Positions 19,072 to 64,000 of a stretch of 64,000 bases of DNA are shown here, piece by piece; position 1 is the first letter of the stretch, and each line of letters opens with the position of its first letter. The notes beneath the pieces are model-generated. The model worked only from the letters and a program-made list of their open reading frames with translations. It had not been told where the DNA came from and searched no databases. The translations under genes were made by a program, and so were the position numbers. Source of the DNA: an uncultured Chloroflexia bacterium (GTDB lineage Bacteria; Chloroflexota; Anaerolineae; Fen-1058); assembly GCA_963844815.1 (NCBI GenBank), contig CAWJPR010000003.1, positions 146,419 to 210,418 on the forward strand, written 5' to 3'.

Positions 19072-21037
<1,966 letters not shown>

Positions 21038-21298
21038 AGTGCCAGTCCTTTTCGTGCTCAGATGTGTTTGCCGGACACCAGTCCGGTGATCGCCAACGTC
21101 CAGACACGCAGACCGTGGAGAAAAGTCACGGGCTTCTGGCCACTCGGCGCCTGACAAGCCTGTAATTTGTTGACCGACTCGTCCGATCGGCCCCACTTGC
21201 AGCAAGTCGCTAAGATCGAACGGTGCACCGTCTGCCTGCGAACCGGGGCCACGCAAACCGAAACGACCTGTGGGGTCACGAGTCTCGCTGCTGCTTAG

Positions 21299-21469
21299 GC
21301 CTCACCCGCGCGCTTGCTGCAGTTGAACCGCGGTCATTGGGGCGTGGAGAATGGCCTGCACTATCGTCGCGATGTCACGCTCCACGAAGATGCGGGACGG
21401 GCCAGCGCCCCCTCATTCGATCACACGATGGCGGCCTTCAACAACTTGGTGATCGGCCACACCATCTGA
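21299..21469 (+). mobile_element. C-terminal fragment of a DDE transposase (ISAs1/IS4-like). It is an IS remnant pseudogene.
   Basis: The fragment translates to ...NRGHWGVENGLHYRRDVTLHEDAGRASAPSFDHTMAAFNNLVIGHTI*. This carries the hallmark HWxIENxLH..RDVT..ED motif of ISAs1-family transposases. No intact upstream ORF is present. Confidence 0.5.
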
Positions 21470-32217: not shown

Positions 32218-32298
32218 AGCAGGAGCAGGATGCATGAAGCATTCTGAGCGGAGCGTAGCGGAGGCGAAGAATGCGGTAGGCATGGTGCAAGAAGCACG

Positions 32299-33240
32299 TT
32301 GCGTCTTGCATCCCGCAGCTTGCATCCTGCTTGTGGTGAGTCGTCTGTGCTCGCTGCCTGTGCGCCGGCCAGCGCCGCCTCATCACCTCTGCCGACATTG
32401 GCCGCACCGTGGCTGGCGACGCGCACGCCGCTTGCGACGATCACGCCTGACCTCACGGCGACTCTGCCCGCGCCGCAACCGTCGCCCACCTTGATGCCGA
32501 CTGTCGCGCCGATCACGGCCGAGGGATGGCAGCCCATCCGATTGGGCGTCTCTGTCCGCGAGATGATGGCTGACCCGATCGGAAAGACCGGGCGCGTGGA
32601 TGTCGTCAGGATCGATCCGTCGCTAGTTGATTTTCACGTGACCTATCAACCGGAGTCGCCGCTGACCGTGCGCGAGTGGTACAGCGCCACGCAGGCCCTG
32701 GTCGTGATCAACAGCAGCTTCTTTGACAAGGCACACAACGCGGTCGGACAGCTGACCAGCGACGGTCAGAGCGGCGGGCAGTCGCATCAACGCATGGAAG
32801 GCGCGTTCTATCTCACCGGCGTCGGCGCGGCCGTGTGGCCGCTGCGCGGCTGGACCAAACCGGCGGGCCTGCAGATCATCGAATCGATCGAATCATTTCC
32901 GATGCTGTTACTGCCGGGCGGAATCGTCAATCCTGAAATCCCCGACGATGCGCGTACCGCGCGGCGCACGGTGATTGCCGCGGATCGATCGGGCAACTTG
33001 CTGTTCGTCGCCACGCCCTCGAGCTCGTTTACGCTGCATGGCCTGGCGGTGTGGCTCGCCAACAGCGATCTCGACATCGACACGGCGCTGAACTTTGACG
33101 GCGGCAGTTCGTCGGGCATTGCCGCGTGGACGCCGACCCACGTGTGGGGCTTTGATTCGGTGGGGCGCGTGCCGGCGGTGGTCACAGTGGACGTGAAAGT
33201 GCTGGGCACGGTCGGGCCGGGCGGTGGCGAATGGCCGTAA
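32299..33240 (+). CDS. Phosphodiester glycosidase family (DUF2233/NAGPA-like) secreted protein.
   Basis: The family patterns VVINSSFFD...FPMLLLPGG...LNFDGGSSSG are present. The true start or signal peptide may lie upstream in another frame. Confidence 0.55.
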   Translation: MRLASRSLHPACGESSVLAACAPASAASSPLPTLAAPWLATRTPLATITPDLTATLPAPQPSPTLMPTVAPITAEGWQPIRLGVSVREMMADPIGKTGRVDVVRIDPSLVDFHVTYQPESPLTVREWYSATQALVVINSSFFDKAHNAVGQLTSDGQSGGQSHQRMEGAFYLTGVGAAVWPLRGWTKPAGLQIIESIESFPMLLLPGGIVNPEIPDDARTARRTVIAADRSGNLLFVATPSSSFTLHGLAVWLANSDLDIDTALNFDGGSSSGIAAWTPTHVWGFDSVGRVPAVVTVDVKVLGTVGPGGGEWP

Positions 33241-34099
33241 ACCCAGCCTGGCTCACACGCCGCGCCCGCGTGGTGCGCAGACGCACCGCGCGAATCACCA
33301 GCCGGCTGCTCCTGGCGATTAGCCTGCTGGTCTCGTGCGGCTGCTCGATCGCTCAACGCACACCGACGGTGGTCATGCCACCGCCGAGCCTACCCCGCCC
33401 CACGGCTACTTCCGCGCCGCGTGATACAGGTTGGCAGTCGATCGGGGCAGGTGTGGAATATCGCGAACTCCAGATCGAGCAGGGGGATCGCTCTACGCTT
33501 CGCTGCGGATCGATCCGGCGCAGACTCGTCTGCGCGTGCTCTATGATCCCGATCGGCCCCGGCGCGTCAGCGCATGGCTGTCCGAATCCAGGGCGCTCGT
33601 CGCCGTCAACGGCAACTTCTTCGATCCGCAGAACCATGCGCTGGGTCTGGTGATTCAGGACGGGCAGAGGCGCGACGGCGTGGTCTATCAAGGCTTCGGC
33701 GGCATGCTGGCGGTGAGCGGCGACGAGGTGCGCGTGCGCTGGAACGTGCAGGAGCCGTATAACGGCGAGCCATTGACTTACGCGCTGCAGAATTTTCCGA
33801 TGCTGGTGCTGCCCGGCGGCTCGCCGAACCTGGAGATCGACGACAACGGGCGGGCTGCACCGCGCACCGCCGTGGCGCAAGATCGATCGGGGCGCCTCAT
33901 CTTCGTCGTGAGTCCCCTGCCAGCCTTCACGCTGACGGAATTTGGCCAGTGGCTAGCGGCGAGCGATCTTGATCTGGAGGCGGCGCTGAATCTGGATGGC
34001 GGCACATCGTCGGGACTGGTGCTGCGATCGGGCAACCGGAACCTCGGCACGGATTCGTGGGTGGAAGTGCCGAATGTGATTGTGGCGGAGAAACGTTGA
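33231..34099 (+). CDS. Phosphodiester glycosidase family lipoprotein, a tandem paralog, with a frameshift near 33475.
   Basis: A lipoprotein signal (LLLAISLLVSCGCS) is followed by VAVNGNFFD...FPMLVLPGG...LNLDGGTSSG. Frame changes occur at a ggggg run. Confidence 0.55.
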
Positions 34100-53946: not shown

Positions 53947-56352
53947 TCATGCTCTGGCTTTAGCCTGCCGTGGTTTGCGTCGCGAAGCTTGTCTCTTGCT
54001 TCGTGCCTTTTGCTTCTTCGCAGGCGGCAGCAAAGCCTGCTCTACCACCTCATCCATGTGCTCGACCAGGATGCAGTTCAAATCGTCCAGAATCTTCTTG
54101 GGGATCTCCACCATATCCTTCTGATTCTTCTTCGGCAGGATCATCGTCTTCAGCCCGGCGCGATGCGCCGCCATCACTTTTTCTTTCAGCCCCCCGATCG
54201 GCAGGACGCGGCCCCGCAGTGTGATCTCGCCCGTCATGCCGACTTCGCGCCGCACCGGCCGCCGGGTAAACGCGGAGATCAGCGCCGTGGCCACGGTGAT
54301 GCCCGCCGAGGGGCCATCCTTGGGAACGCCGCCTTCCGGCACGTGGACGTGAATATCGGTCTTTTCAAAGTTAGCGAGATCGATCTTCAGGGCCTTGGCG
54401 CGCGAGCGGGTATAGGAGAGCGCCGCCTGGATCGATTCCTGCATGACCTCGCCCAACTGGCCGGTCAACGTCAGGTTGCCTTTGCCTTCCAGCAGCGTCA
54501 CTTCGATCGGCAGGATGTCGCCGCCCGCTTCGGTGTAAGCCACGCCGGTGGCGATGCCCACTTCGTCTTTCGCTTCCGCGCGGCCGAACGAGTAGCGCGG
54601 CGGCCCCAGATACTTGTCGAGGGCGTCCGCGGTGATCTCGCGCGTGTGCCGCTTGCCCTCCGCGACTTTGCGCGCAGTCTTGCGCGCCAGGTTGGCCAAC
54701 TCGCGATCGAGATTGCGCACGCCCGCTTCAAAAGTATACTCGCGGATGATGCCGCGCACCGCTGCTTCAGCGATGTGCAGCTGATCGGCTGCGAGTCCGT
54801 GCTCCTTCAGCTGTTTCGGGATCAGGAACTGCCTGGCGATGGCCACCTTTTCTTCCTCGATGTAGCCGCTGAAATCGATGACTTCCATCCGATCGCGCAG
54901 CGCCGGCGGAACTGGATCGAGCGTGTTGGCGGTGGTGACGAACAGGACCTTCGACAGGTCGTACGCCACTTCCAGATAGTGATCACTGAAAGCATTGTTC
55001 TGCTCAGGGTCCAGCGTTTCCAGCAGCGCCGCCGACGGATCACCGCGAAAGTCGCTGCCCAGCTTGTCGATCTCATCCAGCATAAAGAGCGGATTGATGG
55101 TTTCGGCGCGGCGCATGGTCTGAATGATGCGCCCCGGCATCGCGCCGATGTAGGTGCGGCGGTGTCCGCGGATCTCGGCTTCATCGCGCACGCCGCCCAG
55201 ACTGATGCGCACGAACTTGCGCCCCAGCGCTTCGGCGATGGATTTGCCCAGCGAGGTCTTGCCGGTGCCCGGCGGACCGACGAAGCACAGGATGGGACTA
55301 TGCATCTCGCTGCCGGCCAACTTGCGCACCGCGATGTATTCCAGAATGCGCTCTTTGGCTTTGGGCAAGCCGTAATGCTGCGCATCCAGCACTTTGCCCG
55401 CGTGCACCACATCCAGATTATCCGGCGTAACTTCGTTCCACGGCAGTTCGAGCAGCCAATCCAGATACGTGCGGATGATGCCCGACTCCGGTGACTGCAG
55501 CGGCATCTGGTTCAGCCGTTCCAATTCCTTCTCGGCTTTGAGGCGCGTCTCTTCAGGAAAGTCCTTGGCGGCGATCTTGTCGCGCAGTTCGTTGATCTCG
55601 CGCGTCAGCGGATCGCCTTCGCCCAACTCGGTTTGAATGGCTTTCATCTGCTCGCGCAGATAGAACTCGCGCTGGCCGCGATCGACCTCGCGCTGCACGC
55701 GCGAATGGATTTGGTCTTCGAGTTCGAGGACATCCAGTTCCTTCGCCAGCAAAATCGAGAGGCGCTGCAGCCGGTTCTCAGGACTGAAGGTCTCCAGCAA
55801 TTCCTGTTTGACCGTCACATTCATTTCGATTGTCGACGCGATCAGATCGGCCAGCCAGCCCGGCTCGGGCACGTTCATGGCGTAGACGTAGGCGTCTTCC
55901 GGCAGGGCCCGATTGAGCTGGATGACCTTCTCGAATAGGGCCAGCACGGCGCGCATCAAGGCTTCGGTGGCCGCCGGTTTGCCGATCGGATCGTCGCTGA
56001 GCCGCACTTTCACGCGATAGTAGGGTTCGGTCTGGACGAATTCCAGAATCTCGGCGCGGCGCTGGCCCTGCGCCAGCACACTGGTCGTGCCATCCGGCAT
56101 GCGCAGCGAGCGTCCCACCAGCACTTCGGTGCCGATCGTGTAAAAGTCTTCCGGGCGCGGGTCTTCGTTATCGGGATCGCGCTGCGTGACGACGATCATC
56201 GATTCATGGCCGGCTTGCGCGGCCTCGATCGCCTTGATCGATCGATCGCGTCCCACGAACAGCGGCGAGACCATGTGGGGAAACAACACCGTATCGCGCA
56301 CCGGCAGCAGCGGCGCGTCGATGATGTCACTGTGCGAGCGCGGGCGCTGCAC
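53947..56352 (-). CDS. lon: ATP-dependent Lon protease.
   Basis: It has the LON N-domain ([27 protein letters not shown]), AAA+ Walker A (GPPGTGKTS) and the S16 active site ([18 protein letters not shown]). The probable start is a GTG at 56352, giving about 12 aa before the LPLRD block as in E. coli Lon. The listed ORF extends spuriously to 56715. Confidence 0.85.
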
Positions 56353-56686
56353 CGGGCGGAACCAATCGGTAGATGGTTGGGCGCCAAAATCCGTGATGGC
56401 TGAAGGGTTCAGCCAGTTTTGTGTCAGCGAGCGATTGAGCAACTTGCCTCCAGAATCCCACTCCTGCCTTGCGACTATTCTCGCACAAGTCGGGCAGATA
56501 TCCAAATGAACAAAAACCGGGCAGTTGGCCGGTTCCAGCCGATTTTCTAACCGTTTTGCTATGGACGTTATCATGGTGTAATGGGATACTGGACGAACCG
56601 GGATATAATCAGTGCGTCCGCCTGGGGCGTAAGCCATGGTGTCATTCGCTCCAGTACCCAGGCGGTGGAGACTTCCGGGTGAAAGC

Positions 56687-59600
56687 ATGAAGTGTCCGCG
56701 CTGTGGTTTCGACAATCCGGCCGGCTTTGCTTTCTGCGGCCAGTGCGGCAGCCAACTCGCGGCGTCTGAAGATCAACTGACGCCCGCCGAGTTGGATCAG
56801 CTGCGCCGGTATCTGCCATCGTCACTGAGCGACGCCTGGCGCTTTGATCTGGCTGAGCCTCCGCCCCAGCTGCTTAAGCAATCCACCGATCATCTCTATC
56901 GCCTCGTCGACACGACCGCGACTTATCTGCCCGCCCACATTGTCGATCGCATCCTGCGTGATCCGGTGCCGGGCCAGATCGGCGGCCAGTTCGTGGAAGG
57001 CAGTCTGTTGTTCGCCGACATCAGCGGCTTCACGGCGATGTCCGAGCGCTTGAGCCGCCTGGGGCGCGAAGGCGCCGAAGAGATCACCGGCATTGTGAAT
57101 CGCTACTTCAGTGCCATGTTAACGCTCCTGCGTGAATACGACGGCTATCTGGTGAAATTTGGCGGTGACGCGCTGCTGGGTTTGTTCCTGGAGCCCTATG
57201 GCGCTCAGCGGGCCGTGCAGTCTGCCGTGCGCATGCAAGAGGCGATGCGTGAGTTCACGGAATTGCGCACCTCGCAGGGTGTGTTTCTGCTGCGCATGAA
57301 GATTGGTCTGCACCAAGGGCGTTTCTTCTCCGCCCAGCTGGGCAATGCCGAAAACATGGAGTACATGCTGTTCGGTCCGGATGTCAATGCGGCGGCGCTG
57401 GCGGAGGGCGTGGCTGCCGCCGGAGAAGTGCTCGTCGATCGGGCTACGCACGCTGCGCTGAGGATGCCGTGCCAGGTCAGGCCTGCGCAGCATGATGATC
57501 GCTTCTTCCACGTCGAGTCTATCGATACCCGGCGCGATTTCCAGCGCGCGCCAACGATCATGACCATGCTGCCGGCGCCCACCTTGAAGGGCTTGCGCCG
57601 CGCCGTGAAAGTGCTCGACGCTCTGACGCCCTATCTCCCCGCCGGATTGCTGGCGCGCCTGGCGAACAGTCCGCAAGGCATGGTGCAAGAGGGTGAGCAT
57701 CGGCTGGTGGCGGTGACGTTTGCCAACGTGCACGGCCTGGGCGAGCTGGTCGATCGGTTGGGGCCGGGCCGCGAGGAAGAGATCGTCAACGCGCTGAATC
57801 ATTACTTCGTCGGCATGGACCAGGCGGTGCACGGGCTGGGCGGCGTGATCAACAAGCTGGATCTGGCCGAGCAGGGCGACAAGCTGCTGGCTTTCTTTGG
57901 CGCGCCGGTGGCGCATGAAGACGATGCCGAGCGCGCGGTGCGCGCCGCGTTGAACATGCAAGCCGCCCTGCGCGAGATGAGCGGCGCTGTGCCTGAACAG
58001 GCCGGCCTGCCTGATCTCAAGCTGACGCAGCAAGTGGGGATCAGTTGTGGCTACGTTTTTGCAGGCTACGTGGGCACGGCGTGGCGGCGCGAGTACACGG
58101 TGATGGGCGATGAGGTCAATCTGGCGGCCCGCTTGATGTCGGCAGCGGAGCCGGGCAGCATTATCGTCAGCGGCGCAGCGCAGCGCAAACTGCAGGCGCT
58201 GTTCAACCTCACCCCGCGCGGCGCAGTGCGCGTCAAAGGCAAGAGCGATCCGGTTGCCATTTTTCAGGTGGCCGGACTGCGCGCCACGGCCGGATCGCTG
58301 CGCGGGCTGGAGGGCTTGCATTCTGAATTGGTGGGGCGCGACGCCGAATGGAAACAACTCTCGACTGCCATGCAGCACTTGCGGTCGGGACGCGGGCAGA
58401 TCGTCTCGATCATCGGCGAAGCGGGCCTGGGGAAGTCTCGCCTGGCAGCCGAATTGCGCGCGCAGACTGCCAGCGGCCGATTCAGCCCCACCGCGATCGA
58501 GTGTGCGCTGGTTCGAGGGGCGCTGCGTCTCGTTTTACGAGTCGGCGAGCTACCGGCCGATGCAGGAACTCCTTGGCCGGATAATCGACCTGCAATCCGA
58601 TGACGGCATTGCGGAGGCCTGGAGCAAGTTGCGCACGGCAGTGGACGCCTGGCCTTCCGCTGAGAACGCCGCGGCCAGTCTGCCGTATCTTGCCCACTTT
58701 CTGGGCTTGCCGTTGTCCGACGCGATGCAAGCGAAGGTGCGTTACCTCAGCGCCGAGGCCCTGCAGCGCCGCACCTTCATCGCCATCCGCACGCTGATTG
58801 AGATGCAGGCCAAGACTGCGCCCGTGGTCTTCATGCTGGACGACATCCACTGGATGGATCAGGCCTCGCTCGATCTGTTGGAGTATCTGCTGCCAGTGAC
58901 GGATGCGGCGCCGGTCATGTGGCTGCTGCTGTATCGCGCCGAGCGCACGAAGAGCTGCTGGCAAATTCGCGAGAAGGCCGCGCGTGATTTTCCGCACTGC
59001 GCCACCGAGATCGCGCTCGAGCGGTTGTCGCCAGACGAGACCTGGCAACTGCTGTCCAATTTGATCCGCTTGACTCGATGGCCGTTGAGCGTGCAGGAAT
59101 TGATCTTGCAGCGCGTCGAGGGCAATCCCCTCTATCTGGAAGAGGTGCTGCGCACCTTCATGGAGAACGGCGCTGTGGTCCGTGACGAGCGCGGCGCGTG
59201 GCAAGTGCGCGACGACGTCGCCGCGATCACAGTGCCGGACACGCTGCAGGGCGTGATGATGGCGCGTCTCGATCGGCTGGAGGAACCGCCGCGCCAGACC
59301 GCGCAGGTCGCGGCGGTGGTGGGGCGCGCGTTCCCTTATGAGGTGTTGTCCCACGTCATCGACACCGAATACATTGAGCTGAAGGCGTGCCTCGCGCGTC
59401 TGCAGCAGAACGAAATCGTGCGCGAGGATCAACGCCTGCCCGATTTGATTTACGCATTCCAGCATACGCTGATGCAGGAAGTGTGTTACGAGAGCTTGCT
59501 GGCGCGCACGCGCCGCGAGTATCACCGTAAGATCGCGCAATTCCTGGAGGTCAACCGTTCGGATCCGCGCAGCGCCGCCGGGGATGTGGCGCTGCTGGCG

Positions 59601-61022
59601 CATCATGCTTATGCCGGGCAGGACTGGCCGCGCGCTCTGATCTATCAGATTGAAGCGGGTCAACATGCCCAACGGCTGTTCGCCAACCGCGCGGCAATCG
59701 ATCACTTCAACAAAGCCCTCCACTGTGCCGATCAATTGCCGCCGGACGATACGGCCGCGCAGCGCCTGGCGATTCAGACGGCGCTGGGCGAGCTGCTCAC
59801 CACCACCGGCCAATATGAGCCAGCGCTGGAGCATTTGAATACGGCCCGCACTCTAGCGCTGGCGTTGGGGGATTCGAATGCGGCAGCGCGCGTGGACCGC
59901 TGGCTGGCGCGGCTCTACGAGCTGCGCGGCGAGTATCCTGCGGCAATTGATTGGGTGTGGCAGGGGCTGAGAGCTCTGGCAGGCCGCGAGACTGCCGATG
60001 CCGCCGAGATGCTGATCACCGCCGGGCTGATCCATACCCGGCAGGGGGACTACGATAGCGCTCTGGATATGTGCCAGGAAGCGCTGCGCATTGCCCAACG
60101 CCTGGATGAGGTCGCCGTCCTCGCCCGCGCCTACAATTTGCGGGGACACATTACGCGGTTGTCGGGCCAGAGCGCCAAGGCAATTGAGGATTTTGAGAGG
60201 GGTCTGGAGCTCTATGAGCGCGCCGGCGATCTGCATGGCCAGGCCATGTCACACAATTTGATTGCCAATGTCTATTTCGATACCGGATACTGGCAACAGG
60301 CCAATGAACGGTATCGCCAGGCGCGCAGCGCTTTCGATCTGCTGGGCGATGTCTACAACCGTGCTTTTGCCGATAACAATCTGGGCGGCATCGCGTTGAA
60401 TCAAGGCCGCCTCGACGAAGCGCTGGACGACTACCACAGCGCGCTCGAGGCGCTCGCGCGCATCGGCGGATCGGAATATGTGCTGGGCGTGCTGCACAAC
60501 AATCTGGGCGCCACCTGCGTCCGGCGCGGGGAGATCGAAGCGGGGCGCGATCACCTGTACACCAGCCTGCATTACTTCGAGCGCACCCAATCGCGTGATT
60601 TCCTGCCGGAACTCCACCGGCATCTGGCCGAAGCTGCTATGGCCGCGGGCGAATACGCTGAAGCAGAGACGCAGGCCCAACAAGCGCTGGCGGTGGCGCG
60701 GGAATTGACGATGCGCAATGAAGAAGGCACTGCACAGCGCGTGCTGGGGCAGGTGCGCGCTGCGCAGCAGCAATGGCCGGAAGCCGAGCAGTTGTTGAAC
60801 GACAGTCTGTACGCGCTGGAAGAAGCCCGCGACACCTATGAAGCGGCCCGCACGCGCCTGGCGCTGGCGCACATTCGCTGCGCACAGGGACCTTGTGCTG
60901 GAGCGCTGCCGCTGATCGATCAGTGTGTGGAGGTTTTTACTCGCTTGAACGCGCAACTCGATTTGGCTGCTGCGCAGACTTTGCGCGAGCAGGCTCAAGA
61001 GAAAAATAGGAGGCCATCATGA
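56687..61022 (+). CDS. Large multidomain signalling protein: Zn-ribbon, 2x class III adenylate/guanylate cyclase, STAND/AAA (AAA_16) NTPase and TPR repeats. It has a frameshift near 58490.
   Basis: The domains are visible in order. The Zn-ribbon reads MKCPRCGFDNPAGFAFCGQCG. The two CYC domains include FADISGFTAMSE and VTFANVHG...MGDEVNLAARL. The P-loop is GEAGLGKSRL. Then comes VRWFEGRCVSFYESASYRP, in the shifted frame. Extensive C-terminal TPRs follow. The listed ORFs 56636..58603 and 58254..61022 are one gene. Confidence 0.82.
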
Positions 61023-64000
61023 AGAACGTCAGACTCGCTCTCTGTGTTATCCCGGCGGTGAGTTTCCTGGCCGGGCTGCTGGCCTGGCTGGGCAGCGTGA
61101 CGACGCAAGTGCAGGCCGCCCCGCGGCGTGAAGCGGCCGCGGGGGCTGTTCGGGCCGGCTTCAATCGCGGCTCGTTTCTGGCTAATGACGACGACTCACT
61201 TGGTCCGGTGCAGTTGGGTTTCGATGTGAATTTCTTTGGCTTGAACTTCAATCAGACTGTACGTCAACAACAACGGCAATGTGACCTTTGACTATTATCT
61301 GTTTGAGTATACGCCCAGCGATTTGACCAGCATAGGTCACCAGATCATCGCTCCTTTCTGGGCCGATGTCGACACGCGCGGCGCAGGTTCGGGCCTCGTA
61401 ACCTATGGCACAGGCTCGATCGATGGGCACCCGGCGTTTGGCGTCAACTGGCTCAATGTCGGGTACTTCTACAGCAGTATTGACAAACTGAACAGCTTTC
61501 AGCTGATTTTGATCGATCGCTCGGACACCGGCCCGGGTAATTTCGATTTCGAGTTTAACTACGACAAAGTCCAATGGGAAACTGGCGATGCCAGCGCAGG
61601 CACGAATGGTCTGGGCGGCTTTTCGGCACGCGCCGGTTATTCCAATGGCAGCCAGCGTTTCGGCACGTCCTTTGAGCTGGCCGGATCAGCCGTACCCGGA
61701 TCATTCCTTGATACGAATCGGGCGACCGGGCTGATCTATCACAGCCTGAACAGCAGCCAGCCGGGACGGTATGTGTTCAGTGTGCGGAATGGGACGATCA
61801 GCCCGCGCGACACGGCGACCGTGATCGGCGCGGGCCTCCCCGTGACCGGGTCGGCCAGCGCGGCGATTGGCGCGAACTGGTACAAGATCGCGGTGCCGCA
61901 GGCCGATTCGATCATCCACGCGACGCTGAGCGGCCTGGCGCAGGACTATGACTTGTATCTGTTTGCGCCGCAGGTCGATGAAGAGACGGGGCAGATACGC
62001 GATCTGGGGCAACTCAGCAATGTGGGCCAGCTCAGCAACGTCGGGCAGCTCAGCAATGTGGGGCAGCTCAGCAACGTGGGCCAGCTTCAGCAATGTAGGC
62101 CAGCTGTCCGATCTAGGGCAGCTCAGCAATGTCGGGCAGCTCAGCAACGTCGGACAATTGAGCAATGTCGGGCAGCTCAGCAATGTGGGCGAGCTGGGCG
62201 ACATTGGCACGCTCGTCGCATTGTCTGCCCATCCCGGCGCCACGCCGGAGAGCATCGATTACGATGTGCACGAACTGGCGGGGCCCTACTATCTGGCCGT
62301 GGTCGGCCACATTACCCAGACGGCCGGCACGCTGTACACGTTGACCGTCACGGTCGATCCGCCTGTGTTCCCCTACAGCCCGATCACGTATACCGTCCCG
62401 ACGAGCTTCACGACTCCGGCCAAGGACCCTTCAGTTCGCACGCTGATCCTGTACAACACGGCGCGCTTCAATAAATACTATGCCGGCAACGACACGATCA
62501 CCTCGACCAACCTGATCGCTCGAATCAATAACCTGGCCAACAACGCCAACGTGAACGGCAAGGCCTTCGACTTGTCGACATATACCGACATCAACTTCGG
62601 CTACAGCCTGTGGGACTCGCAGCCGGGTAATCCGTTGGCGGCCAACTATGTGGCGGCCAGCATCAAGCAGTTGCTGTATGACCTGGCCCCTGCGTATCCG
62701 AATTTGCAGTACCTGGTCATCGTCGGCGACGACCGCCTGATCCCATTCCGGCGCATCCGCGACGAGGCGCTCTATGCCAACGAGCGCCACTACGCGCCGA
62801 CCGCTTACACGCCGATCTTGTCGTCATCGCTGGGGCTGCGTTTCTTCTTGAGCGACGACTACTATGCCGGATTGCTGCCGCTGCCCTTCAAGGGACGCGA
62901 GCTGTATCTGCCGCAGGTCGCTCTCGGCCGGTTGGTGGAGAAGCCATCGGAGATTGCCCGCGCAATCGACGCGTATCTGGCCCGGCCGGTTGTGGCGCCG
63001 CGGGATGCGCTGGTCACCGGGTATGATTTCCTGATCGACGAGGCGACCGCGATCCGCACTGCGCTGCAGGCGCAGGGCGTCACTACGCTGACAACGCTGA
63101 TCAACAACACGTGGACGGCCAGCGTCTTCAGCAGCACCTTCTTCTCGCGGGCCACGGCCTTCAACATCTCGTCGCTCAACTCGCATTTCGAGCATTACCG
63201 TTTCTTTCCGAACGATCCCAACAACATCTTCGCCACGCAGGTGGCGGCCTCCACCAACTACAGCGGCAGCCTGATCTTCACGGTGGGCTGCCACTCCGGC
63301 CTCAACGTGCCCGATGAACAAATGCCTAGCCAATTGTTGGGCACCGACTGGGCGCAGGCCTTCTCGCGGCAGCGGGCGACTTACATCGCTAACACCGGTT
63401 ACGGCTACGGCGATTCGGACCTGATCGCCTATTCCGAGCGCCTGATGGCCAACTTCGCACAGGAGCTGGGGTACTGGGGCAAAGGCCCGCAAACGGTTGG
63501 CAAGGCGCTGCTCAATGCCAAGCACCGCTACTACAACAGCCTGCCCGTGCAGACGTTCAGCAACTACGACGAGAAGGTACTGGGCATAACGACCCTGTAT
63601 GGCCTGCCGATGCTGCGGGTCAACATGCCGGTGACGACGACTGCCAAACCGGGTGACTTGTTGGAATCGCTCGAAGGCACGGCGCCGACGGCCGCCGAAC
63701 TCACGACCGAGACCCTCACTTTACGCTTCACCTACGTGCCCAGCAACACGAATTCGGGTACCTTCTTTCAGGTTGCCAATGTGGACGACCTGCAGATTTC
63801 GGCCGGCCGGCCGGTTCAGCCGCGCACGAGCAAAGATATTCATCTGCCGGATACCATTGCGCACGGCGTGTTGATGCTAGGCGGCGTCTTCCAGGCCTTC
63901 CCTGACTTCGACCCGGTCATCTCGCAAATCGTGACCGATCGAACGCCTCTCAACAACGAGCCGTTGTACGACACGACCGAATGGTATCCCACCGTGCTGG
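61019..64000 (+). CDS. Secreted NIDO-domain / (GQLSNV)n-repeat / peptidase C25 (clan CD, gingipain-like) protein. It is 3'-partial and has frameshifts near 61262 and 62088.
   Basis: A signal peptide is present (MKNVRLALCVIPAVSFLAGLLAWLGSV). The NIDO domain reads FGLNFNQTV|YVNNNGNVTFD...APFWADVDTRG. About 12 GQLSNV hexapeptide repeats follow. Then comes a C25-like region (YLVIVGDDRLIPF, FTVGCHSGLN) that continues to the window end. The start overlaps the cyclase gene stop as ATGA. Confidence 0.65.
61995..62215 (+). repeat. About 12 tandem 18-bp units encoding the hexapeptide GQLSNV, with GQLSDL and GELGDI variants.
   Basis: The units gggcagctcagcaatgtg and gggcagctcagcaacgtc iterate. One unit carries an extra t at about 62088. 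Confidence 0.8.

Follow-up and report, generated by a model that had tools for sequence, protein, structure and literature searches.

A cyclase-STAND-TPR protein and a secreted gingipain-like peptidase as a probable two-gene cassette of Chloroflexota

Why should a gene for a large cytoplasmic nucleotidyl cyclase lie directly beside a gene for a secreted peptidase of the gingipain type? The question is raised by a stretch of 64,000 nucleotides from an uncultured Chloroflexia bacterium (assembly GCA_963844815.1, contig CAWJPR010000003.1, positions 146,419 to 210,418; the whole stretch is referred to here as the window), in which two forward-strand genes meet close to the right-hand end. Gene 1 encodes a protein with a zinc ribbon, two class III cyclase domains, a STAND nucleotide-binding domain and TPR repeats; gene 2, which runs past the end of the window, encodes an exported protein with a NIDO domain, an array of hexapeptides and a C25 (clan CD) peptidase domain. 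A preliminary description of this DNA had presented the pair as a module not described before, and we too found no description of a cyclase/C25 pair in the literature searched. The data suggest that Chloroflexota have conserved the two genes as a cassette in which the cyclase would serve its own protease as a dedicated partner for signalling inside the cell; we consider this reading probable, with some reserve. Each gene appears to be a new member of a known family, and it is the fixed partnership and the array-bearing layout of the peptidase that appear undescribed in that literature.

The primary question is whether the vicinity of the two genes is a peculiarity of one genome. When one genome per species was scanned with a profile of the C25 domain, at least 599 stretches came up, of which at least 598 were confirmed; the neighbourhood counts given here refer to the 80 loci most similar to the C25 domain of gene 2 (the best 80 of the at least 598), with flanks of up to 10 kb. 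Nearly all of these belong to metagenome-assembled genomes (MAGs) of Chloroflexota, the closest ones, at 68–70% identity, to Thermoflexales and Anaerolineae. A relative of gene 1 (tblastn, E <= 1e-20) was present in the fetched flank of 46 of the 80 loci and in 26 of the 31 that had 10 kb on both sides, so the expectation of the preliminary description that the genes would be neighbours in related genomes beyond chance was borne out. The cyclase lies upstream on the same strand in 28 loci (about 50% identity to gene 1, and 75–81% in L002–L004, where the gene 1 orthologues are intact) and downstream in the others, on the same strand in 13 (about 33% identity) and on the opposite strand in five. 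According to the maps of open reading frames (ORFs), the two ORFs abut in nearly all paired loci, the apparent 8-kb gaps in some being due to C25 genes of about 3,500 codons. In six loci (L018, L019, L042, L052, L054 and L064) a second cyclase-STAND-TPR gene stands on the other side of the C25 gene.

The two partners also diverge together. Pairwise identities of the cyclases and of the C25 domains correlated with r = 0.886 (496 pairs), a value reached by none of 2,000 permutations in a Mantel test. In two MAGs an upstream pair occurs together with a downstream one (L008/L040 and L055/L042). The paralogous pairs within a MAG are 32% and 45–47% alike and the same-class pairs across MAGs 51–64% and 53–66%, and the pair therefore appears to duplicate and diverge as a unit. 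Since each protease paralogue keeps its own cyclase, the cue or the response is presumably specific to the pair. The same association is seen from the side of the cyclase: among the matches listed when metagenomes were scanned with the cyclase profile, the five cyclases that most resemble gene 1 all adjoin a C25 gene, while a C25 neighbour was found beside one of about 75 more distant cyclases, many of these loci having short flanks, and no alternative conserved partner was seen beside the latter. Being adjacent and co-evolving across many Chloroflexota genomes, the pair is probably one working unit that has not been described so far.

The features of the two genes are as follows (positions are those of the window).

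56684..56758, +, N-terminal zinc ribbon of gene 1 (CPRCG...CGQCG, residues 17–41; Pfam DUF7577 at 29 bits, DZR and Zn_Ribbon_1)
56978..57535, +, cyclase homology domain 1, C1-like (ADCY10 alignment; conservation in 33 partner cyclases)
57689..58249, +, cyclase homology domain 2, C2-like (Pfam; ADCY10 alignment; conservation in partner cyclases)
58325..58922, +, STAND/AAA_16 nucleotide-binding domain (Pfam AAA_16, both halves; interrupted by the extra base at 58502)
58502, +, one-base insertion in gene 1, frame 2 to frame 0 (ATCGAG[T]GTGCGCTGG); its removal restores ...AIEVRWFEGRC..., conserved in orthologues
59808..61019, +, TPR sensor region, MalT-like (Pfam TPR_12, five times, and TPR_MalT)
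61008..61022, +, Shine-Dalgarno sequence of gene 2 (AGGAGG, 5 nt before the ATG and inside the 3' end of gene 1) and ATGA overlap
61019..64000, +, gene 2, cut by the window end: secreted protein with NIDO, PPC-like domain with hexapeptide array, C25 peptidase and prodomain-like module
61019..61117, +, signal peptide (MKNVR, hydrophobic core, VQA then AP; hydrophobic segment at residues 3–28)
61250..61787, +, NIDO domain (Pfam PF06119), containing the extra A at 61256
61842..62355, +, PPC-like beta-sandwich split by the array, a motif recognised by eye (NWYKIAVP...DYDLYLFAPQVDEETGQIRDL, then the array, then GTLVALSAHPG...GPYYLAVVGH...YTLTVTV)
62005..62189, +, 18-nt tandem repeat, 10.2 copies (Tandem Repeats Finder, TRF); an extra T at 62086/62087 shifts the frame
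62434..63633, +, C25 (gingipain-like, clan CD) catalytic domain
63688..64000, +, beginning of a module resembling the gingipain prodomain that runs past the window (family profile A1 against the PDB)

Gene 1 (56687..61022, forward strand) was found as two ORFs, 56636..58603 in frame 2 and 58254..61022 in frame 0, which are fused by a one-base deletion at 58502; the corrected product has 1,444 aa and ends with the TGA at 61020–61022, and an alternative in-frame start at ATG 56636 would give 1,461 aa. Pfam confirmed the zinc ribbon, the two cyclase domains, the STAND/AAA_16 domain and the TPR repeats that the preliminary description had recognised in a protein of about 1,445 aa, the Guanylate_cyc family matching in two stretches (E 4.8e-43). 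Positions 1–47 and 51–166 of the AAA_16 profile fall on either side of the frameshift. The Walker A motif GEAGLGKS is located at 58415–58438 and Walker B, VVFMLDDIHWMD, at 58824–58859; GEAGLGKS and hhhhDDxHWMD are kept across the partner cyclases. With an AAA_16 P-loop, both Walker motifs and helical repeats after them, the protein has the make-up of a STAND NTPase with TPR, and no hydrophobic membrane-like segment was seen in it.

What kind of cyclase is it? The best match of a profile built from gene 1 and 13 orthologues was human ADCY10, the soluble adenylyl cyclase (sAC), at E 1.5e-36, and the window sequence alone reached E 6e-26. A single HMMER stretch joined residues 95–490 of the query to 31–419 of ADCY10 and spanned both catalytic domains. 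The alignment pairs FADISGFT with FVDISGFT (D47), VKFGGDALL with LKFAGDALL (K95, D99), FANV with FVNL (the degenerate C2 position), INK with INK (K334) and YTVMGDEVNLAAR with YTVIGQKVNLAAR (T405, N412, R416), all sAC catalytic residues being retained in the window protein. In the C1-like domain the metal-binding Asp residues are encoded at 57017–57019 and 57167–57169 and the Lys equivalent to K95 at 57155–57157, and the Asn/Arg pair is missing; in the C2-like domain the first metal Asp is replaced by Asn (57725–57727), just as in sAC, and Lys 57854–57856, Thr 58097–58099, Asn 58118–58120 and Arg 58130–58132 correspond to K334, T405, N412 and R416. Among the 33 partner cyclases, the equivalents of D47, D99, T405, N412 and R416 are kept in both the upstream and the downstream arrangement class, and those of K95 and K334, together with the degenerate Asn, in the upstream class only, to which the window belongs. 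The roles of these residues in binding metal, base, ribose, phosphate and bicarbonate are those that they have in sAC structures. On this assignment C1 would provide the metal ligands and C2 the residues contacting the base, the ribose and the phosphate, giving one active site and one degenerate site. The compound made by the cyclase is likely to be cyclic AMP (cAMP), because the adenine-selecting Lys/Thr pair of sAC is kept.

As judged from this alignment, gene 1 putatively encodes a bacterial equivalent of full-length sAC, in which a TPR sensor can be recognised clearly. Like sAC, it carries two different cyclase domains in one chain in a collinear C1-C2 order, with the metal Asp pair in C1 and the degenerate Asn plus the Lys/Thr/Asn/Arg set in C2, followed by a P-loop STAND domain, and is soluble; it differs by the N-terminal zinc ribbon, by Ala in place of Arg176, by the recognisable TPR sensor and by its specific neighbour gene. 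In mammals, full-length sAC (sACfl) is predicted to contain a STAND domain with a P-loop, the regulator of which has not been identified (PMC12802110). The comparison with mycobacterial cyclase-AAA-TPR proteins, made in the preliminary description, holds for the fusion of a class III cyclase with an ATPase and repeats, but the closest known relative is the ADCY10-type sAC. The same general plan of class III cyclase, STAND-type ATPase and helical repeats is shared by the mycobacterial Rv0386-type cyclase-ATPase-HTH proteins, by the cyclase-AAA_16-TPR regulators and by TIGR03903, the latter being the best NCBIfam match of gene 1 (91.5 and 188.5 bits for its two halves against a cut-off of 705.75). 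Proteins of the Rv0386 and TIGR03903 types have a single cyclase domain plus a DNA-binding or kinase module, and we know of no C25 partner for them. A kinase domain was not found in gene 1 by Pfam, and the protein does not belong to the TOMM kinase/cyclase family that TIGR03903 describes.

Is the neighbour really an exported peptidase? Gene 2 comprises 993 corrected residues inside the window (intact orthologues have 1,169–1,231 aa) and is read in frame 2, then in frame 0 after the extra A at 61256 and in frame 1 after the extra T at 62086/7, and is still open where the window stops. The signal peptide, NIDO domain and hexapeptide array proposed earlier were all recovered, as a hydrophobic segment, as a NIDO match of 97.5 bits on the corrected sequence (cut-off 25; E 1.3e-27; profile positions 1–185 of 186) and as the 10.2 TRF copies. 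A signal-peptide-like N-terminus is present in 58 of the 63 homologues whose N-terminus is complete. The NIDO domain is optional, being present in the orthologues of L003 and L082 and absent from those of L002 and L004, and elsewhere in the C25 family the N-terminal modules include beta-helix, PKD, thrombospondin-3, PD40 and others. A homologue search with the N-terminal half of gene 2 returned NIDO proteins only. The window NIDO is 60–70% identical to that of short PEP-CTERM, MYXO-CTERM and VPLPA-CTERM proteins of Cyanobacteria, Planctomycetes and others, a conservation that seems unusually high for a promiscuous extracellular module.

At the other end, the C25 proteins of the upstream class mostly terminate in [IVF]YLP[LVI]xx[RK], a motif matched by 39 C25-family ORFs and listed in NCBIfam (NF053834 and NF050076) as the 'YLP-box putative sorting motif'; the relative P0002 scores 11.9 bits with NF053834 (cut-off 10). 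The window part of gene 2 stops about 180–240 residues short of this position, and P0021, which is 92% identical, ends in YVYLPVIKR. Nothing relevant on the YLP-box was found in the literature searched. In some C25 ORFs of the loci L002–L081 (for example, L003:8618-12124 and L022:2621-12208) the box at the extreme C-terminus is duplicated. In the class with a downstream cyclase (L040, L042, L049, L051, L056, L062 and L065) the YLP-box is absent and there is a conserved tail GG[NS]IK[IV]H[QRK], which suggests a second kind of C-terminal signal.

For the catalytic region, 155 relatives of the C-terminal part of gene 2 were found in a collection of 5.8 billion proteins, mostly metagenome proteins of Chloroflexota and Anaerolineae; for many of them a PF01364 match is precomputed, and NCBI gives a few the name 'C25 family cysteine peptidase'. 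An AlphaFold2 model of the region, built from 46 sequences, had a predicted local distance difference test score (pLDDT) of 90.9 and a predicted template-modelling score (pTM) of 0.92, and RgpB and Kgp headed the Foldseek ranking, with caspases, separase, legumain and GPI8 behind them; the modelled fold is thus that of a gingipain catalytic domain. The motifs N-x-H-[FA]-x-H and G-C-[HQ]-x-G are conserved in at least 90% of the 46 aligned sequences. Together with the fold, they uphold the earlier proposal of a C25/clan CD region with a His/Cys pair. The candidate dyad, with its residues placed behind consecutive beta-strands, consists of His 63184–63186 and Cys 63289–63291, with a second conserved His at 63193–63195; the His equivalent to RgpB His211 was picked by eye from the 'NGH'/'TGH' motif.

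In its layout gene 2 departs from the gingipains proper, which have an N-terminal inhibitory prodomain and a C-terminal domain (CTD) belonging to the secretion system of type IX (T9SS). The only PDB sequence match of the family profile (A1) was the pro-domain of RgpB (4ief_A, E 1.2e-4), the catalytic chain not being matched, and because 4ief_A aligns to the region past the catalytic domain, the prodomain-like module is predicted to follow that domain and not to precede it. A T9SS CTD was not found in the full-length relatives, which have the YLP-box tail instead. Compared with RgpB and Kgp of Porphyromonas gingivalis (MEROPS C25, clan CD), gene 2 is only 13–19% identical, has its prodomain-like segment after the catalytic domain, ends, as a family, in the YLP-box tail without a T9SS CTD, contains a split PPC-like domain with an array upstream, occurs in Chloroflexota and has a cyclase for a partner.

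The array between the NIDO and C25 domains encodes about 12 hexapeptides (GQIRDL, five GQLSNV, GQLSDL, four GQLSNV and GELGDI). Unlike NIDO, the array is a constant feature of the subfamily. Runs of G-x-L-x-x-[IVL] occur in at least 32 of 92 C25-family ORFs, and in every array inspected (31 homologous segments) there is one and the same insertion point, after ...D[YF]DLYLFAPxVDEETGQLRD[IL] and before GTLVxxS...P...YxVHELAGxYY. The units are near-identical within a protein and lineage-specific: GQLSNV, GQLGNV, GGLANI, GALADI, GRLSNI, GQLNTL, GSLSDL and GLLGDT. A frequent layout is 1 + 5 + one odd unit (G[DE]LxDL) + 5–6, with which the corrected window array agrees. By eye, the two halves around the array may be read as one PPC-like beta-sandwich. 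Pfam PPC (PF04151) gave no match on the window sequence, and more distant homologues list PF04151; a single-sequence AlphaFold2 model gave the beta-strands flanking the array a pLDDT of 70–80 and the array itself about 30, and a homologue search with the PPC and array segment returned two fragments only. For the array we considered a left-handed beta-helix, since the units fit [LIV]-G-x-x-[STAV]-x, or a two-armed hairpin, which the 1+5+1+5 layout might allow. In the closest orthologues (L002:4423-7974 and L003:8618-12124) the unit GQLGNV amounts to two Gly-X-Y triplets and matches Pfam Collagen and the NCBIfam Scl collagen-like adhesin. For the window array collagen was excluded, as the GQLSNV unit breaks the Gly-X-Y pattern.

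How might the two proteins work together? Gene 1 would be a cytoplasmic protein in which a C1-C2 pseudo-heterodimer with one full and one degenerate site is followed by a STAND switch and then by a TPR sensor. On the model of other STAND proteins, binding of a ligand to the TPR sensor would open the nucleotide-binding domain and allow ADP to be exchanged for ATP, and the ensuing oligomerisation would release or raise the cyclase activity so that cAMP is made; for the STAND mechanism we draw on the MalT/PH0952 work (PMC6468293, PMC4381067). Gene 2 would be exported by the Sec pathway as a latent enzyme acting on surface or extracellular proteins, with a core made of the split PPC-like domain and array, the gingipain-type peptidase, the prodomain-like module, Ig-like domains and the YLP-box putative sorting tail, and with variable adhesin-type modules at its N-terminus, NIDO in the window. 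The cyclase may then control its own protease or report on it, and a cyclase that regulates or responds to the protease seems to us more likely than mere co-expression, whichever way the information would flow. As the order of the genes is variable and includes convergent loci, the link probably lies in protein function or regulation and not in translational coupling.

A bolder version of this scheme is that the TPR-STAND module senses a product of its exported partner, for example, a re-imported peptide, in a private protease-to-cAMP feedback or quorum-like circuit; we put it forward tentatively and think it rather unlikely. One possible source of such a peptide is the removal of the prodomain-like segment or the cleavage of surface proteins by the gingipain-like protease. 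The RRNPP systems (Rap-Phr, NprR-NprX, PlcR-PapR) have a cytoplasmic TPR receptor encoded beside the gene for a Sec-exported product, and their cassettes co-diversify. The analogy would be one of logic only: here a protease exceeding 1,100 aa takes the place of the small exported pro-peptide, and a cyclase that of the phosphatase or transcription factor at the output.

Several observations weigh against a dedicated partnership of a sAC-like cyclase with a C25 protease. The order and the strand of the pair vary, and the five convergent loci mean that co-transcription is not obligatory, although in this genome the two genes are presumably transcribed together. At the junction aatAGGAGGccatcATGAag the ATG of gene 2 (61019–61021) overlaps the TGA of gene 1 (61020–61022) as ATGA, which, together with the Shine-Dalgarno sequence inside gene 1, speaks for an operon in the window; the overlap on which the preliminary description had based translational coupling is real in the window, but is not conserved in the closest orthologues, the loci L002, L003, L004 and L082 having spacers of about 35–105 nt with a Shine-Dalgarno sequence of their own. 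Scans for promoters and terminators found nothing beyond shuffle expectation that bears on the pair. The cyclase is missing in five of the 31 loci with full flanks, and in the MAG DATHYN01 three giant C25 paralogues (L021, L028 and L033) have no cyclase in the fetched flanks; these look like a subfamily outside the cassette. (Their C-terminal tails are unrelated.) A third conserved neighbour, such as a cAMP receptor or another cNMP-binding regulator, was not found in the C25 loci or in those of the metagenome scan with the cyclase: when the 618 flank ORFs of the C25 loci were clustered all against all, only the cyclase and C25 families were widely shared, and the next family occurred in six loci. 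In gene 1 the Arg176 of the sAC bicarbonate site is Ala, no aligned partner cyclase has an Arg there, and the Lys95/Arg176 pair is incomplete even with the Lys95 equivalent present (VKFGGDA). A sAC-like cyclase of Chloroflexus is reported to be activated by bicarbonate (Kobayashi et al. 2004, cited in PMC11006738). With the Arg176 equivalent missing, bicarbonate control was not adopted for gene 1, and sAC-type regulation should not be assumed for it. In gene 2 the window's own 640-aa C-terminal part, searched in three versions up to E 10, had no match in Pfam or NCBIfam, and the full-length orthologues from L002, L003 and L018 likewise had no PF01364 match. Relatives scored 43.8 (P0001, 98% identical to the window), 52.9 (P0002) and 41.1 bits (P0006) against a PF01364 cut-off of 23; as P0001 is well above it, we take the missed match to be a borderline effect of the HMMER speed filters on a long, weak match. 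Finally, the reading frames are broken three times in 7.3 kb, each time by a single extra base (58502, 61256 and 62086/7).

These frame breaks could mean that both genes are pseudogenes here, the insertions being real and the pair a remnant of a once-functional one. Three insertions lie close together while the other genes of the window are mostly intact: suspicious adjacent ORF pairs elsewhere turned out mostly to be separate genes, and the other sizeable genes tested were mostly unbroken. The frameshifts are therefore concentrated at this locus and a high error rate across the window is not shown. On the other hand, each single-base removal restores conserved residues, in-frame stops are absent, and the catalytic residues are all retained. 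Moreover, the near-identical contig L001 (ENA ERZ25039461 contig_186154; 95.5% identical over 62052–63997) lacks the extra T at 62086 and contains three different one-base insertions, which favours an assembly error, and P0001 and P0242, encoded on near-identical ENA contigs, likewise have translations that seem frame-broken by eye. The case for assembly error thus leans mainly on L001, P0001 and P0242. We regard such error as likely, possibly made worse by mixtures of paralogues and strains, and decay of the genes as unlikely. The ENA contigs near-identical to gene 2 (L001, P0001, P0241 and P0242) carry many one-base insertions at other positions, a sign that assemblies of this type are error-prone for the population.

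If the genes are intact, the partnership might still serve a purpose other than signalling about a surface protease. STAND NTPases with TPR sensors and clan CD proteases recur in bacterial defence, the cyclase domains match PADLOC PycC models (E 4e-24), the TPR region matches a PADLOC TPR model, and the family is multi-copy and fast-diverging and bears repeat arrays; the cyclase could therefore sense an invader and act through the protease as effector, or generate a Pycsar-type signal. The protease, however, is extracellular and far nearer to gingipains than to CHAT proteases, and the PADLOC matches are generic ones for gene 1 with none for gene 2, so that both genes do not come out as one system; we consider defence quite improbable. 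The C25-like domain might instead be a sorting transpeptidase for YLP-box proteins, in the manner of PorU or GPI8, with the cyclase reporting the state of the surface or of sorting. PorU, the C25-like sortase of the T9SS, shares with gene 2 the clan CD fold, the surface location and the association with proteins bearing C-terminal sorting signals, but such a role fits poorly with proteins that are giant, variable, multi-copy and self-tagged, and we give it very little credence. Least probable of all, to the point of being hardly credible, is the chance juxtaposition of two abundant families, one of regulators and one of secreted proteins: cyclase-AAA_16-TPR proteins are indeed numerous (at least 600 in the metagenome scan) and most of them, among the matches listed, have no C25 neighbour, but chance would have to account for 46 paired loci out of 80 with no other conserved neighbour, for the closest cyclases adjoining C25 genes and for the Mantel result.

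If the dedicated partnership is real, these bacterial homologues with a private, co-evolving partner may offer a way to ask what the STAND module of sAC senses, and in filamentous Chloroflexota cAMP signalling would be linked to proteolysis outside the cell or to remodelling of its surface; if the sensor does bind a re-imported ligand, a sAC-type enzyme would for the first time have a natural class of ligands for its STAND region. In Chloroflexus aggregans, gliding and aggregation are reported to be promoted by cAMP and, separately, by an exogenous secreted protease (Hanada et al., Morohoshi et al., as cited in PMC11434263). The protease family itself is abundant, with at least 598 loci in species-representative genomes, and has features that are unstudied: a homogenised array in one fixed loop, a prodomain-like module after the catalytic domain and the YLP-box tail.

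Of the other genes in the window, the one divergent from gene 1 encodes a Lon protease (53947–56715, reverse strand); its ORF is about 110–130 codons longer than the conserved Lon N-terminus, and translation probably begins at a site inside it, in which case the gap before gene 1 would measure about 250–300 nt. A secreted-type protein with BNR/sortilin repeats (19075–20388, reverse strand; NCBIfam F510_1955 glycosylhydrolase, 213 bits) ends in LEYLYLPLIMRGQ, a YLP-box tail. The adjoining ORF 20360–21301 on the same strand contains the same repeats in another frame, and a further frameshift may have divided a single gene into these two ORFs. No tRNA or tmRNA genes and no Rfam families at gathering score were found in the whole 64-kb window. 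Two tandem genes, 32248–33237 and 33425–34096, both on the forward strand, each contain a full NAGPA (phosphodiester glycosidase) domain.

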